Source: Escherichia coli (lineage in GTDB: Bacteria; Pseudomonadota; Gammaproteobacteria; Enterobacterales; Enterobacteriaceae). Taken from it: a stretch of DNA of 43,029 nucleotides. The stretch lies in the NCBI GenBank assembly GCA_033901515.1, contig GCA_033901515.1_4984.1. One strand, given 5' to 3'. The notes under the pieces were generated by a model. That model was not told the origin of the DNA and did not search any database. It saw only the letters and a list, made by a program, of their open reading frames with translations. The position numbers and the translations under genes are program-made. This document shows positions 33,894 through 43,029 of the stretch, piece by piece (the first letter of the stretch is position 1; every line of letters starts with the position of its first letter).

Positions 33894-34229
33894 TCACTTG
33901 ATTGGTGGAATATCAATAGACTCTAGCAGCGGCTGCTGCAGTAGGTAAGTGTTATACTCCTGTATCGCCTGCACCGCCAAGTCCCGCAGTCGCAACGCTT
34001 TGTTTACGTCCCAATCAGTACGAGAGAACACTGCACTGGGGGATACTAGGGAGAATGCCTCTGGGTTAAAGTGAAAGGTAGGTTCCTTTGATTCGACCAG
34101 CTGTATCATCGCCTCGCTTGCGTTACGAACGGTGTATACACCACCCCTATCCACACCGGTACGGTAAGCTGTCTCACGGGCTATGTCAGCATCTCGCCGT
34201 ACTTTATCACCAATTTTAAAATTACACAT
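33894..34229 (-). CDS. Hypothetical protein (about 111 aa) with N-terminal K(I/V)GDKV ... YTV module
   Basis: I prefer ATG 34227-34229 (MCNFKIGDKV..., RBS GAGGGG); shares an N-terminal module with the 36480..36968 protein. Confidence 0.5.
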   Translation of the reverse strand: MCNFKIGDKVRRDADIARETAYRTGVDRGGVYTVRNASEAMIQLVESKEPTFHFNPEAFSLVSPSAVFSRTDWDVNKALRLRDLAVQAIQEYNTYLLQQPLLESIDIPPIK

Positions 34230-35502
34230 TAATCTGCCCCTCATTAAATCGGCATCTACCTGGGTCGAATGCTACCTCGAATTGCAGTAGCGACTCCTTA
34301 CCTGATAGCGCCATCTTGTTCTTAGGTGTACTGATACCGCGGATGTTTTGCATGTGCGGCTGCTCGTTCCTGTCCAAGCACCCCATCATAATTGCCAAGT
34401 CCAAAGCACCTTGTACGCCAATCTTACTCTGCTTCATTGCCGTGAGCGGCGGAAACAGTAGGTTGTAACCTTCGAGTGAAAGCTGCATAGTACCGATAAC
34501 TGCACAATCGTTCTCGCACCCCAGGATACGTAGCTCCTGCCACTTCGCCTCTAGATTCTGGTGTTCACTCTCCATAGTACCGCCACGGATATTAGCCACC
34601 ATGTCTATGATTATTACCGCCGGGCGCATCTCTTCCATGAGCGTAGAGATTTGAGCCATAGTAAGAGAGTGTGCCGCCTTGATACGAATACGGTCGGCCC
34701 TGCCTACTTTCTCCAGATAGGCTGGCACAAACTCTTGCCTACTGTGCCTGTCCTTAATCTCAGCCAGAGTCCAATGCAGCGCCGCTTGATATACCCTCGG
34801 CACTGTACGCGTCGCCGGGCCTTCGTTAACCAACCACAGAATCGGGCGGTCCCCGTATACTTCAGGTTGTTGCTGCATCTGCTTAGCAAAGTCCACGGCA
34901 ATAGCAGCGAGTAGACTAGTTTTACCAGAATCAACAGGGGCAGCAACGGCGATGCAATCACCGCCGCGAAGCCCACGAATGCTATTAGACAGTTGCTCAA
35001 ACACACCCAGTTTAAGTCCGCCACTTTCATCAGTCGCGGCAAGTATTTCATCAACACTTCCGCTCTCCCATTCCAGTAGCGAATCATGAACAGCAGCACC
35101 ATCACCGTACTTGCGCTGGAGGTGTTTCATCTCCAGCAGATAATCAACCTCCTCGCCGTCTTGGTAGCGCTGCGTTAGCGCCGCCACCTCCCCGCTGTAT
35201 GCTAACTCATTCAGTGTCTGAACAATCCCCACCACAGAATCCTGTGGCACGGCTTGTACTCCCCGCATAAGCTCGTCCATAATCACCCGCTCTTCACGGG
35301 ATAGATGTCCAGCACGGAGGTTGAGCATACTCTGCATCGCATCCCACTGCACCTCCTGGTGCTCCGGGTACGTATTCCAGTACAACCCCACCCAGTCCAG
35401 TAGGTTCGAGGTGTCCGGCGCTAGCATGGACTTGGGTATCTGCTCTCGCAGTCGGTTCCAGACCTTCTGCGTGCACATCGCCTTAACTACTATTAGGTCC
35501 AA
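34222..35502 (-). CDS. DnaB-like replicative DNA helicase
   Basis: 426 aa; Walker A AAPVDSGKTSLL; apparent TTG start with RBS GGAGG. Confidence 0.75.
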   Translation of the reverse strand: MDLIVVKAMCTQKVWNRLREQIPKSMLAPDTSNLLDWVGLYWNTYPEHQEVQWDAMQSMLNLRAGHLSREERVIMDELMRGVQAVPQDSVVGIVQTLNELAYSGEVAALTQRYQDGEEVDYLLEMKHLQRKYGDGAAVHDSLLEWESGSVDEILAATDESGGLKLGVFEQLSNSIRGLRGGDCIAVAAPVDSGKTSLLAAIAVDFAKQMQQQPEVYGDRPILWLVNEGPATRTVPRVYQAALHWTLAEIKDRHSRQEFVPAYLEKVGRADRIRIKAAHSLTMAQISTLMEEMRPAVIIIDMVANIRGGTMESEHQNLEAKWQELRILGCENDCAVIGTMQLSLEGYNLLFPPLTAMKQSKIGVQGALDLAIMMGCLDRNEQPHMQNIRGISTPKNKMALSGKESLLQFEVAFDPGRCRFNEGQINV

Positions 35503-36479: not shown

Positions 36480-36968
36480 TTATGCATTTGCTTTCTCCTT
36501 ACGTTTGATATCCATAGCCATGCGACGAAGATCGTGTGCCAGTTGCAGGGCTGCGTCGGGACTCATATTAATACCGATCTCCTGCTCTGCCCGGGGGCTG
36601 TTCTTTCTAGGAACTATTCCGATGTAGAGTAGGTTCTCATCAGTAAAACTACATCTATCTAGGACTAACCGCTGGTCATTGCCACGGTTGCGCTTGGAGT
36701 TCATGTAGGCTACGCTATCCGGAACTGGCGGCAGCTCGTCGTCCGGCTCTTGGTACAGCTCAAAGTCTTCAGCACGCCAGGGGGTGGGGTCACAATAACG
36801 CTGCATACCGTCAAGCTGCAACCAGTCACCACTAGCACTAATGTTTGTTACAGTATAATAATCCTTGACGCCTTGGTTATGTCGCAAGAGTGTCATAAAC
36901 CCGGTACCTGCTGCGCCTACTGCTACTACTTTATCACCAACTTTAAACTTAGATTTAAACTTAGACAT
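36480..36968 (-). CDS. Hypothetical protein (about 162 aa) with N-terminal K(I/V)GDKV ... YTV module
   Basis: I prefer ATG 36966-36968 (MSKFKSKFKVGDKVV..., RBS GGAGGG); the tool start is TTG 36974. Confidence 0.5.
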   Translation of the reverse strand: MSKFKSKFKVGDKVVAVGAAGTGFMTLLRHNQGVKDYYTVTNISASGDWLQLDGMQRYCDPTPWRAEDFELYQEPDDELPPVPDSVAYMNSKRNRGNDQRLVLDRCSFTDENLLYIGIVPRKNSPRAEQEIGINMSPDAALQLAHDLRRMAMDIKRKEKANA

Positions 36969-36970
36969 AA

Positions 36971-38005
36971 TCAACCCTCCACAATATTCTCGTATCCACC
37001 CCAGTCTTCTACAACTCGGGTGCCTAGTTCAATCAGTTCTTCTTTGAAGCCATAATCAGAATACACCATGATGTATTCCGCCGCCCTTGCCGGGTTATCC
37101 AACACCCAACTAATCAGTTGCTGCTTAGAAAGCTGTGACACCTCCTTGAATGCTGCCAGTAAATGCGGGTCTTCCGCACAGGGAACATCTAGTGACATAT
37201 CAAAAGAATACGCAGGGGCAGATAACCACGCATCTGGTTCCACTACCTTTGGATCCCGCTCAATCGGTAGGTACTTGAACGTGTCTGCTTGCAGTACGCG
37301 CTCAAGTACTTGTCCAAGAATATTCAAGTCCAGTACCTCATCCGGGGTGTGCTCGTGCATGTACCCTACGCCTACGTTGGTGCACTCAGGAATGATGCCA
37401 ACGAACTCGGCCGAGTCAGTGTATACCCCTTTCTGTAAGTGCGCCTCCGTTCGTCCTAGTCGGGCCGCGAGTTCCTTTGCGAACGTATCAGAGCAGCAAC
37501 GCTGGTATCGTTGATGCGTAATGATGCCATCACCTCGGCGGTCAAAGCTAATCATTGCCTTGACCCCAGTCCAGAAGCCAGTATCGTCCTTGGCTGATGC
37601 TCTGCTGCCCTCGCAGCCTACTTCTTCATCCACGAAGAAGCAGTAGCGTCCGTGCACCCCACGCTTAATCATCTCCAGCATCAGGTAGATACCAGCGCCA
37701 CAGTCTGCACCTAGACAATCCGCTGCTTGTGGGTTGCGCAGGAACATGACGCCCTTGTTAGTAATTGCAATGTCCGGCGCAGCACTGCCTGGCCGAGCCA
37801 CCGTATCAAGGTGTGATGTAAATGCTACATCACTCTGTTCAGAGTTTCCGATTAGCACAAAGTAGTTACCGTGCGCATCCCTTACATAGTGTTCTGCACC
37901 AGCAAGAGCGCTACTAAGTAGCGGCTCAAACCATTTGGTACTGCCCCAGCTAGGTCGGTGCGTTGTTAAGATCTTTGTCAGTAGTTTCAAGTCGATACCA
38001 TACAT
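36971..38005 (-). CDS. Putative metallopeptidase, clan MH (M20/M28/M42-like)
   Basis: 344 aa; ordered candidate metal/catalytic residues SHLDTV, ADCGAG, FVDEEVGCEG, FDRRGDG, HEHTPDE. Confidence 0.55.
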   Translation of the reverse strand: MYGIDLKLLTKILTTHRPSWGSTKWFEPLLSSALAGAEHYVRDAHGNYFVLIGNSEQSDVAFTSHLDTVARPGSAAPDIAITNKGVMFLRNPQAADCLGADCGAGIYLMLEMIKRGVHGRYCFFVDEEVGCEGSRASAKDDTGFWTGVKAMISFDRRGDGIITHQRYQRCCSDTFAKELAARLGRTEAHLQKGVYTDSAEFVGIIPECTNVGVGYMHEHTPDEVLDLNILGQVLERVLQADTFKYLPIERDPKVVEPDAWLSAPAYSFDMSLDVPCAEDPHLLAAFKEVSQLSKQQLISWVLDNPARAAEYIMVYSDYGFKEELIELGTRVVEDWGGYENIVEG

Positions 38006-39714
38006 TAAGCTGCCTCCTGTTCTGTTTTAGCTTCTTTGTCTTCTTCGGCTTCTTCAGCCTCATCGTTGCCGAGGTATGGCTCATCCAGCACCGACGCAGC
38101 ATACTCCGTGAGGATTATACCGTGCACTGGATGGCTTTCTGTGTGGATGCTCAGAACATCATACCCTTGTGCGTACTGCATCGGCTCTTCATCATGCACT
38201 GCACCCTCTACAGCACAATCTGCTGCGTCATCATTAAGTACCCAGGAATTATGGTAGTCTGACCATGAGCAATTCCATGATGGGTACACTACGCTGCGGC
38301 CCACTACCTGTACGTAAGTATCACCGATACAGTGCGGGCATACATAACCACCGTCACAAGCTACGTACATGTCATCCTCGTCGAAACGTCCCCCGCACTC
38401 GATGCAATCGCAGCGACCGTCATCAATCCAAATGTACCCATCAGCGTCCTGTGCTTCATAGTCATAGCAGTCGCAGATAACGAACGCGTTATCCCCCTTT
38501 TCATCCACGCCATCTTGATTCCCGTCTAAGTACGGCATAAGCACGGCACCCTCATTCTCTGGGAGCGGAATACGCGCCAGTAGTGCGCCATCTAAGCAGT
38601 CCGTATCGCGCTCGTACCCATTAGCACGTAGAATGGCGTCCGCAGCATCCCCATATGCACGGACATATTCATTGGTTTCGATGTTAACGATAGCACGGGC
38701 GTGTACTTTAAAGTCATCACCAAAAAGTTCCCCAGTATACTGGATGAACAGGCGCAGATTATTGTCCGGCAAGCCGTGACTAGTCGTGGCATATACACGC
38801 ACCGGGCTAGCCTCGAAGTCGTATCCAGTCATGCAGCTACTAGGGCCGTTCTCGTATGCGTAGTACCACTCCCGCTCGGTCTTACAAAGATATGTAGTAG
38901 GCTCCACGTTCATAGCTTTGAGGTCTTCAATACATTCCCGGAAGTCTACACCGCTTCCGTAATAATTAGCGAGCCACTTGCCTGCCCGCATCTCTACACA
39001 GCGATACTCAGTAACAGCGGCGTAGTCTTTGTGTAATCGCGGCTGCCCCAGCATTACTACAGGCTCACCGTTGCGGAAGCCGAAACCTAGTGGGATTGCA
39101 AATCTAGACACCACGAACCCGTGCAACTGCATAAGCAAGGTTGCTGCCCAGTAATCCCCATCATACACACTGTACCCACGAAGGTATTTGGCCCGGAGGG
39201 AGTGAGTAGGTGTTAGCATCATCTCTTCGAACAACTCTATAGCCTGTTTGTGCACCTTGTATCCGGTAAAGTATTGGACCGCTTCTACTACACGTTCTGT
39301 AACTACGTCAGGGCCATCATAGAAGGTTCTGCTAGATAAACCGAATGCTTGGTCGCAGGTACCTGCACAGTCAAAGAGCTTATGCAGGAGAGTGTCACTA
39401 ATATCAACCGTGCCCAGCGGCCCAACATACCCACCCAAATCCTCTCCTGCAGCTGTAAAGTTGCCGAGTGCTACAAGATGCCCCGGCAGCACCCTTGACA
39501 ACATATAAAAGCCATACAAAAGCGCACGGGTTTTGTTACTTTGCACGCGCGCACGGCCTTGAGTTGATAGGTAGGGAAGCTGGCACCAGTAATCCCCGGA
39601 AGAGTACATACTATCCTTCAGTGGAAGAGCATTGGCCCCTTCTGGAAATTTGATGGTCCAACTCTCATAGGCAGGTACTTTTACGTCTACAGTTACTTTA
39701 TTAGTCTCTTGCAT
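38005..39714 (-). CDS. Large early protein of unknown function, Cys-rich C-terminal region and acidic tail
   Basis: Tool ORF 38005..40008 (667 aa) overlaps the 39761..40105 ORF by 248 nt. I prefer internal ATG 39712-39714 (RBS GGAGA), about 569 aa. C-terminus has CDCYDYEAQDADGYIWIDDGRCDCIECGG ... CDGGYVCPHC and ends EEAEEDKEAKTEQEAA. Confidence 0.55.
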   Translation of the reverse strand: MQETNKVTVDVKVPAYESWTIKFPEGANALPLKDSMYSSGDYWCQLPYLSTQGRARVQSNKTRALLYGFYMLSRVLPGHLVALGNFTAAGEDLGGYVGPLGTVDISDTLLHKLFDCAGTCDQAFGLSSRTFYDGPDVVTERVVEAVQYFTGYKVHKQAIELFEEMMLTPTHSLRAKYLRGYSVYDGDYWAATLLMQLHGFVVSRFAIPLGFGFRNGEPVVMLGQPRLHKDYAAVTEYRCVEMRAGKWLANYYGSGVDFRECIEDLKAMNVEPTTYLCKTEREWYYAYENGPSSCMTGYDFEASPVRVYATTSHGLPDNNLRLFIQYTGELFGDDFKVHARAIVNIETNEYVRAYGDAADAILRANGYERDTDCLDGALLARIPLPENEGAVLMPYLDGNQDGVDEKGDNAFVICDCYDYEAQDADGYIWIDDGRCDCIECGGRFDEDDMYVACDGGYVCPHCIGDTYVQVVGRSVVYPSWNCSWSDYHNSWVLNDDAADCAVEGAVHDEEPMQYAQGYDVLSIHTESHPVHGIILTEYAASVLDEPYLGNDEAEEAEEDKEAKTEQEAA

Positions 39715-39760
39715 TTTCTTTGTCTCCGGTGTTAGTAGTATCTCATCATACCTTAAAAGT

Positions 39761-40105
39761 TCAGCGTGCATACCACGCAGAGAGTTGTCGCTGCTTGTAG
39801 TAGGAGCGGATGGCTCTTCTAAATTGCGTGTAAGCTCCGCGATACCCATACTTCCGTAGCGCTGCAACCACATCAAATGCGATATGCTCTTGCAGTTTCC
39901 GCGCGGCAGGTTCAGTATACTCCCGGTAAGCTCTGAGCACAGTGCCAACACCCTCTCTTCTAACGCGGAGTAGTCTACGTTCAACGGGTACAATTCCTTT
40001 GAGTTCATTAGGTACCTCTTTGAATATTTCCCACGGGCACCCGCACTTGCCCTGCGTTTCTAGCAAGCGCCAGCACAGTAGCGCTGTTTCGTCTACTGTG
40101 AGCAT
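39761..40105 (-). CDS. Hypothetical early protein (114 aa, basic)
   Basis: ATG 40103-40105, RBS AAGGA; abuts the next gene. Confidence 0.45.
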   Translation of the reverse strand: MLTVDETALLCWRLLETQGKCGCPWEIFKEVPNELKGIVPVERRLLRVRREGVGTVLRAYREYTEPAARKLQEHIAFDVVAALRKYGYRGAYTQFRRAIRSYYKQRQLSAWYAR

Positions 40106-40984: not shown

Positions 40985-41010
40985 TTGAAACCTCGTTGTT
41001 AACGGTATTC

Positions 41011-41037
41011 ACATAGCGCCCCGCAGGACGCTATAGG
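41011..41037 (-). promoter_or_regulatory. Conserved hairpin element A
   Basis: Plus acatagcgccccgcaggacgctatagg; minus-strand RNA CCUAUAGCG-UCCUGCGGGG-CGCUAUGUG forms a stem of about 9 bp. Confidence 0.45.
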
Positions 41038-41172
41038 CTTACCATTATACGTATTCTCCCAATCCCTCATAGTGCCACCTGTTATGGCGGCCCCGGGTTG
41101 GCACATCAAAGGCGTCAGAGTCGTTAGCTGCCGGAATCAATGCCCACCACTTGATAGCTTGAATCTTATAAA

Positions 41173-42474: not shown

Positions 42475-42510
42475 GATTCAATCTAACTTATGTTCTTCGC
42501 GGTGTCAACT
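42475..42510 (-). promoter_or_regulatory. Candidate sigma70-type early promoter
   Basis: Minus strand TTGACA (plus 42503-42508), 17-nt spacer, TAGATT (plus 42480-42485). Confidence 0.25.
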
Positions 42511-42952: not shown

Positions 42953-43029
42953 AGTTCCCTAAAACCCTCCTACTCCTGTAACATCATTTCTTAATAGCTT
43001 TCGAATGAAAGTAAAGGTGAAGGGATAGC
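42953..43029. repeat. Terminal direct repeat, right copy
   Basis: Exact 77-bp copy of 1..77. Confidence 0.9.

Follow-up and report, generated by a model that had tools for sequence, protein, structure and literature searches.

Gene organization and genomic context

The window, by which we mean the entire 43,029-nucleotide stretch of DNA that was analyzed, is the complete genome of a Drulisvirus phage (KP34-like Autographiviridae). Its genes are arranged as in a phiKMV/KP34-type podovirus, seen here as the reverse complement: small early open reading frames (ORFs) are followed by genes for a 667-aa protein, the peptidase, a Toprim primase, a DnaB-like helicase and a DNA polymerase. The two ends of the window (positions 1-77 and 42953-43029) are identical over 77 nt, leaving 42952 unique bases, and resemble the k-mer overlap that remains when a complete phage genome is assembled as a circle. 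The peptidase coding sequence, as defined by the ORF list and direct reading, occupies positions 36971..38005 on the minus strand and extends from an ATG start codon through 344 codons to a TGA stop codon (36971-36973). A ribosome-binding site (AGGAGG, 38013..38018, minus strand), also identified by direct reading, is located 7 nt 5' of the ATG and thus still within the 3' end of the gene upstream. The peptidase gene had been described as overlapping this large upstream ORF by 1 nt, and the overlap is real, because the TAA stop codon of the 667-aa ORF (38005-38007) and the peptidase ATG (38003-38005) share base 38005 within a TAATG junction. The downstream gene begins with an ATG at position 36968, 2 nt past the peptidase TGA, and is preceded by a GGAGG sequence within the last peptidase codons.

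In megablast searches, matches to the gene with a nucleotide identity of 80-90% were obtained in Shigella phage SFN6B, Klebsiella phage Kpn13 and Escherichia phage Minorna, as well as in more than 200 other Drulisvirus records; no copy was found in complete E. coli genomes. In phage KPV811 (KY000081/NC_047787) the match is split into two pieces that span 1480 bp, as compared to 1035 bp in the window, and in other GenBank relatives (PP197160, PP889474) an HNH endonuclease is annotated under or beside the peptidase match. Taken together, the split match and these annotations suggest that homing endonucleases have inserted at the peptidase locus.

Two candidate transcription signals precede the gene. 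A sequence scan located a sigma-70-like host promoter (TTGACA-17-TAGATT, 42480..42508, minus strand) near the left end of the genome, which agrees in both hexamers and in their spacing with the host promoter described for the KP34 group, TTGACACCGCGAAG(A/G)ACATAAGCTAGATT (PMC4411677). In addition, the 32-nt KP34-group motif AGCCTATAGCGTCCTACGGGGCGCTATGTGAA, previously proposed to be a phage promoter or a nick site (PMC4411677), is present with one mismatch at positions 41008..41039 on the minus strand, approximately 1 kb upstream of the 667-aa and peptidase genes. It occurs as a single copy in the window and was matched in none of 100 shuffles; KP34 relatives carry two copies. From the 32-nt motif to the primase gene the genes are packed or overlapping and no convincing terminator is found, so co-transcription of the peptidase gene with the 667-aa gene, as originally proposed, is plausible from the sequence.

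Distribution and prior annotation of the peptidase family

The assignment of this gene as a peptidase is already known as annotation, since it corresponds to KP34 gp11 and belongs to PHROG 4191. KP34 gp11 was listed as a 'putative peptidase' in 2015, among the genes conserved throughout the KP34-like genus (PMC4411677), and PhiM1_10, a conserved gene of the PhiM1-like phages, was assigned to IPR007484 (M28) in 2018 (PMC6115819). Both proteins (PHROG 4191; pVOG VOG5332) are orthologues of the window peptidase and show no substantive difference from it. The PHROG 4191 'peptidase' profile is matched over essentially its full length (E=8e-144, residues 4-343 aligned to profile positions 3-342 of 342), and the gene occupies the position upstream of the primase gene that is expected of this family. 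More than 200 GenBank phages label the gene "peptidase" or "M28", using names that include 'peptidase', 'peptidase family M28' and 'Zn-dependent exopeptidase superfamily protein'. At the protein level, it is 96% identical to the 'putative peptidase' of Shigella phage SFN6B and 82-96% identical to annotated Drulisvirus peptidases. Full-text literature searches turned up no work on the function, biochemistry or genetics of the gene, and a literature search for its homologue in Thermus phage P23-45 (gp56) found no mention of that protein.

Homologues were recovered from 369 GenBank phage records, 591 IMG/VR stretches and 711 database proteins, and they occur in podovirus-type phages, large phage contigs (150-476 kb) and Thermus phages. 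The gene order near the primase gene is alike in Minorna, VP93 and Clickz. On large contigs (about 100-200 kb), the homologues lie among genes for PhoH, AdoMet decarboxylase, Dam, NUDIX and CoaE proteins. One 150-kb viral contig (IMGVR_UViG_3300042878_001826) carries two separate copies of the peptidase family (loci L041 and L065).

The protein has the fold and catalytic residues of clan MH enzymes

The original prediction held that the protein is a co-catalytic metallopeptidase of the clan MH type, and sequence profiles, structural modeling and residue conservation all support this assignment. The Pfam Peptidase_M28 profile (PF04389) scores 23.4 bits, just above its gathering cut-off of 21.3. 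The M42 profile (PF05343, 12.3 bits) falls below its cut-off of 23.2, and TIGR01883 reaches 17.7 bits as compared to a cut-off of 274. When homologues were scanned individually with Pfam (E<0.01), M28 was matched in 38 of 50, M20 (PF01546) in 7 and M42 in 3. The sole match of a phmmer search against PDB sequences is the PepT-like protein 3gb0. A profile constructed from the 50 homologues retrieves the same structure from the PDB (E=1.7e-14), along with 3rza (6.7e-14), followed by M42 TET1 and PepD-type M20 enzymes. The best matches in these searches are peptidases. An AlphaFold2 model calculated from the 50-homologue alignment has a mean pLDDT of 84.7, with residues 1-245 mostly exceeding 90 per 10-residue block, and it exhibits the alpha/beta catalytic-domain fold of clan MH; a Foldseek search of the PDB with this model returned clan MH enzymes only, at a probability of 1.00. 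Fold matches in BFVD are viral proteins named 'putative peptidase', 'Peptidase M28' and 'putative aminopeptidase'. Among the BFVD entries, A0A6M5CDE3 is a 534-aa viral protein that shares 83% identity with the peptidase across 347 alignment columns, and may be a fusion or read-through with a neighboring gene. A PADLOC search for a defense or anti-defense assignment of the peptidase gave no match. A role as a prohead or virion protease or as a lysis enzyme was considered and ruled out, as the gene is replication-proximal, the protein contains no signal peptide or transmembrane segment, and the clan is one of exopeptidases.

The protein contains the ordered residues H65-x-D67, D101, E127-E128, D155 and H219, which had been taken to fit zinc peptidases. 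The residues are as described, but the bare pattern by itself is weak evidence: a loose regular expression, tested against 20000 shuffles of the protein and against the ORFs of at least 150 aa in the window, matched 1422 of the shuffles (7%) and 2 of the 36 ORFs. When the motifs are given their local context ([ST]HxD[TS], GAD, DEExG), none of the 20000 shuffles is matched. Conservation was assessed in an alignment of 50 homologues whose identity to the query extends down to 34% and whose mean column identity is 27%. H65, D67, D101, E127, E128, D155 and H219 are invariant in all 50 sequences and are among 29 invariant columns, which also include R156, Q165, S172, T196, D197, T209, N210, Y215 and E223; C170, C171 and C208 are nearly invariant.

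The invariant residues follow the clan MH ligand order of His, Asp (bridging), Glu, Asp/Glu and His, and four of the five putative ligands align to motifs of 3gb0. All of the codons given below are on the minus strand. H65 and D67 (H65-L-D67 within SHLDT, 37805..37813), the predicted first metal ligand and its supporting Asp, align to FTSHMDTV in 3gb0. The predicted bridging ligand D101 (LGAD, 37703..37705) is positioned at the start of a helix formed by residues 100-114 and aligns to LGADDKAG. E127 and E128 (VDEEVG, 37622..37627), which align to VGEESG, are the putative general base and a putative metal ligand, respectively; as in other clan MH enzymes, the catalytic Glu directly precedes the ligand Glu and is accompanied by the Asp of the HxD motif. 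The candidate fourth ligand, D155 (SFDRRG, 37541..37543), is assigned from its position in the model, where it lies at the end of the strand formed by residues 150-157, and it falls inside the Pfam M28 match (residues 53-186). Finally, H219 (GYMHEHTPDE, 37349..37351), the candidate fifth ligand, aligns to VGYEEIHTTNE. In the 50-homologue profile alignment, the SHxDT, LGADD, EExG and VGY..HTxxE motifs are in register with the PepT-like structures.

A lid-less enzyme with an M20-like core

The model comprises three segments, all of which are encoded on the minus strand. Residues 1-245 (37271..38005) form the clan MH catalytic domain, a mixed beta-sheet and helix structure in which most 10-residue blocks have pLDDT values above 90. 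They are joined by a low-confidence linker (residues 246-279, 37169..37270), with pLDDT below 50 for residues 260-275, to a C-terminal helical domain (residues 280-344, 36974..37168) that contains five predicted helices and has 10-residue block means of 49-79. The C-terminal domain is kept in Drulisvirus-like relatives, whereas distant homologues have other, unrelated tails instead.

The intervals between the ligands distinguish the protein from two of the families to which it is related. In M20 enzymes, a lid/dimerization domain of approximately 110 residues is inserted between the fourth ligand and the last His, which are about 180 residues apart, whereas in M42 enzymes a PDZ-like domain of approximately 100 residues separates the HxD motif from the bridging Asp, with a spacing of about 110. 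The corresponding ligand intervals in the window protein are 36, 27, 27 and 64 residues, and over the 50 homologues the last three are 27, 25-27 (35 in one sequence) and 64-71. As the interval from the fourth to the last ligand (D155 to H219 in the window protein) never exceeds 71 residues, none of the homologues contains a lid; likewise, the interval of 36 residues from H65 to D101 indicates that the M42 insertion is absent. These features identify the protein as an MH enzyme with a single domain and no lid, whose catalytic core is most like M20B and whose architecture is most like M28. It differs from the PepT-like M20B tripeptidases (3gb0 from Bacillus cereus and 3rza from Staphylococcus aureus; TIGR01883) in that it is without their lid/dimerization domain, has a short hairpin at the lid position (Q165, the near-invariant C170-C171, and S172), and contains the extra C-terminal helical domain. 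In its single-domain, lid-less architecture and its H, D, E, D, H ligand order it resembles the M28 aminopeptidases of Vibrio/Aeromonas and Streptomyces, a family to which it can be assigned only tentatively, while it differs from the M42 TET aminopeptidases (PhTET1 2cf4, 1ylo) by being without the PDZ-like insertion.

The peptidase gene is paired with a gene for a large protein

The gene directly upstream (38005..40008, minus strand) encodes the 667-aa protein (phrog_6980), in which homologue and profile searches define a conserved core at residues ~340-620. This core contains an invariant S-C-M, two Tyr, an Arg and an Asp, as well as a CxxC...CxxC zinc-ribbon-like motif. A profile of this partner protein searched against 1.84 billion representative proteins identified 1092 clusters sharing the core (E<=1e-3), and the protein matches PHROGs 6980 and 13313, both listed as 'unknown function'; no relatives of the family were found among Pfam, NCBIfam, PADLOC or PDB profiles, and a mixed-alignment homologue search for distant partners returned only close relatives among the matches listed. 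Its AlphaFold2 model, based on 30 homologues of 58-92% identity, is of low confidence (mean pLDDT 48, with core residues 355-530 below 50). The start of the 667-aa ORF deserves comment. Its first 98 codons (39712-40008, minus strand) overlap a 114-aa ORF in another frame (39761..40105) and the residues that they encode are modeled at a pLDDT of ~30. In the databases, many homologues have lengths of 562-589 aa or begin to align only at ~Met99. A separate GGAGA precedes this Met codon, and the true start of the partner may be Met99 (ATG, 39712-39714).

At its C-terminus (38008-38070, minus strand), the partner has an acidic tail that ends in ...EQEAA. Of 135 full-length partner representatives, clustered at no more than 50% identity, 65 terminate in Ala-Ala-COOH, in most cases following an acidic tail that shows no other conservation. 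This ending resembles the ssrA degron, for whose recognition by ClpX the terminal Ala-Ala is the key feature. The idea that the peptidase acts on this terminus is unsupported, as the ending does not track with an adjacent peptidase gene; among peptidase-adjacent partners, it is found only in Drulisvirus, Clickz and one further locus (L064).

The pairing extends well beyond Drulisvirus. In its C-terminal half, the 667-aa protein has homologues in gp6 of Vibrio phage VP93 (BLASTP 6e-40) and gp41 of Pectobacterium phage Clickz (3e-9), the genes for which are located directly upstream of the respective peptidase genes. We surveyed 79 IMG/VR loci containing peptidase relatives by searching their ORFs with a broadened partner profile. 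On contigs of 70 kb or less outside Drulisvirus, where the peptidases are 35-45% identical to that of the window, the partner is co-oriented and directly upstream in 21 of the 33 informative loci and lies within a few kb in 5 more. On contigs larger than 70 kb it is directly upstream in 0 of 12 loci, with one weak match nearby, and no partner is found within 5 kb on either side of the gene for the P23-45 homologue gp56. Since the homologues on large contigs and in P23-45 have no adjacent partner, the enzyme does not depend on it. Searching IMG/VR with the partner alignment (A2) retrieved Drulisvirus, VP93-like and Phimunavirus loci only, and single distant partner proteins retrieved no loci. 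The pair is located just ahead of the replication genes both in the named phages and in a 59-kb contig, where it is followed by genes for an integrase, ThyX, a primase-helicase and a family A DNA polymerase.

The gene downstream of the peptidase (36480..36968, minus strand) encodes a 162-aa protein (phrog_4317) that is conserved at this position in Drulisvirus and Phimunavirus. It matches Clickz gp39 (E=8e-23) and has a narrower distribution. The FKVGDKV motif at the N-terminus of this protein recurs at the start of the ORF at 33894..34244.

Discussion

We conclude that the gene probably encodes a soluble, cytoplasmic two-metal hydrolase of clan MH, most likely an exopeptidase. No 19-residue segment of the protein exceeds a Kyte-Doolittle score of 1.14 and no hydrophobic segment is present, and it should therefore be soluble and cytoplasmic. 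In the mechanism that we envision, H65, D101 (as the bridging ligand), E128, D155 and H219 would hold two metal ions (Zn, Co or Mn), with D67 orienting and supporting H65. E127 would act as the general base that deprotonates the metal-bridging water molecule, and the activated water would then attack a terminal peptide or amide bond. Because both the M20 lid and the M42 insertion are absent, the active site is expected to be open, as it is in the M28 aminopeptidases. Judging from the sequence and the model, we consider exopeptidase activity at an open active site to be the most probable, as the closest relatives are tripeptidases, dipeptidases and aminopeptidases; such an enzyme would act on the N-termini of peptides or proteins. 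It would be produced from the tightly packed gene block that leads into the primase, helicase and DNA polymerase genes, and in small podovirus-type phages it would be made together with the conserved large upstream protein. The helical domain at the C-terminus, which is variable, is a candidate module for targeting or for binding a partner.

An alternative, which we regard as possible but tentative, is that the peptidase functions as part of a cassette, in which it processes or activates the large partner, or acts jointly with it on a host target during takeover or replication; in Drulisvirus and Phimunavirus, the cassette would also include the downstream 162-aa protein. The conserved arrangement argues for this possibility, as the partner domain is encoded immediately upstream and in the same orientation in Drulisvirus, in the Maculvirus VP93 and in the Phimunavirus Clickz, as well as in nearly two-thirds of the informative and diverse small-phage loci from IMG/VR, while the start and stop codons of the two genes overlap and the downstream protein is conserved with Clickz gp39. 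However, the arrangement is absent from the 12 loci on larger contigs and from the 5-kb flanks of the P23-45 gene, the frequent Ala-Ala C-terminus of the partner does not follow peptidase adjacency, and synteny alone can mirror shared timing rather than shared function.

It is also conceivable, although somewhat unlikely, that the protein is an MH-clan amidohydrolase whose substrate is not the terminus of a peptide or protein but a small compound that is either acylated or non-peptidic. Candidates would include amino acids with an N-acyl or N-succinyl group, conjugates of the gamma-glutamyl or folate type, and peptidoglycan precursors. Deacylases of clan MH score nearly as high as peptidases in our searches, but the best sequence and fold matches are peptidases (the PepT-like 3gb0 and 3rza, PepD and M42 TET). 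Moreover, in M20 deacylases the lid provides substrate-binding and oxyanion residues, and this lid is absent in the window enzyme. That the protein is a catalytically dead scaffold, or that the motif arose by chance in a non-functional ORF, is highly improbable and is effectively refuted by conservation: although the bare pattern is readily met in shuffled sequences, the catalytic and ligand residues are invariant in homologues that have otherwise diverged widely, the fold matches are strong, and the gene has a ribosome-binding site and hundreds of conserved orthologues.

As a sequence call, the peptidase adds little, since it is so labeled in hundreds of records and in two genus-defining papers. 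What is added here is its lid-less M20-like anatomy, the invariance of its catalytic set across a large phage-wide family, and its pairing with an uncharacterized large protein. The exopeptidase that we favor is encoded by a core gene of Drulisvirus, which includes therapeutic phages of Klebsiella and E. coli. Assigning it a role, for instance in trimming host proteins, timing degradation or deacylating metabolites, would close a gap in the early-to-middle program of phiKMV/KP34-type phages. Its tight and widely conserved pairing with the large protein also offers an experimental route into that uncharacterized family. The stronger proposal that the peptidase supplies the enzymatic half of a cassette of T7-supergroup podoviruses that has not been described before, with the large upstream protein as the other half, is speculative and, in our estimation, unlikely; nevertheless, the cassette is a reasonable experimental lead. 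If the proposal is true, the two proteins would cooperate on a host target, or act upon one another, at the switch from takeover to replication, for example in timed proteolytic control.
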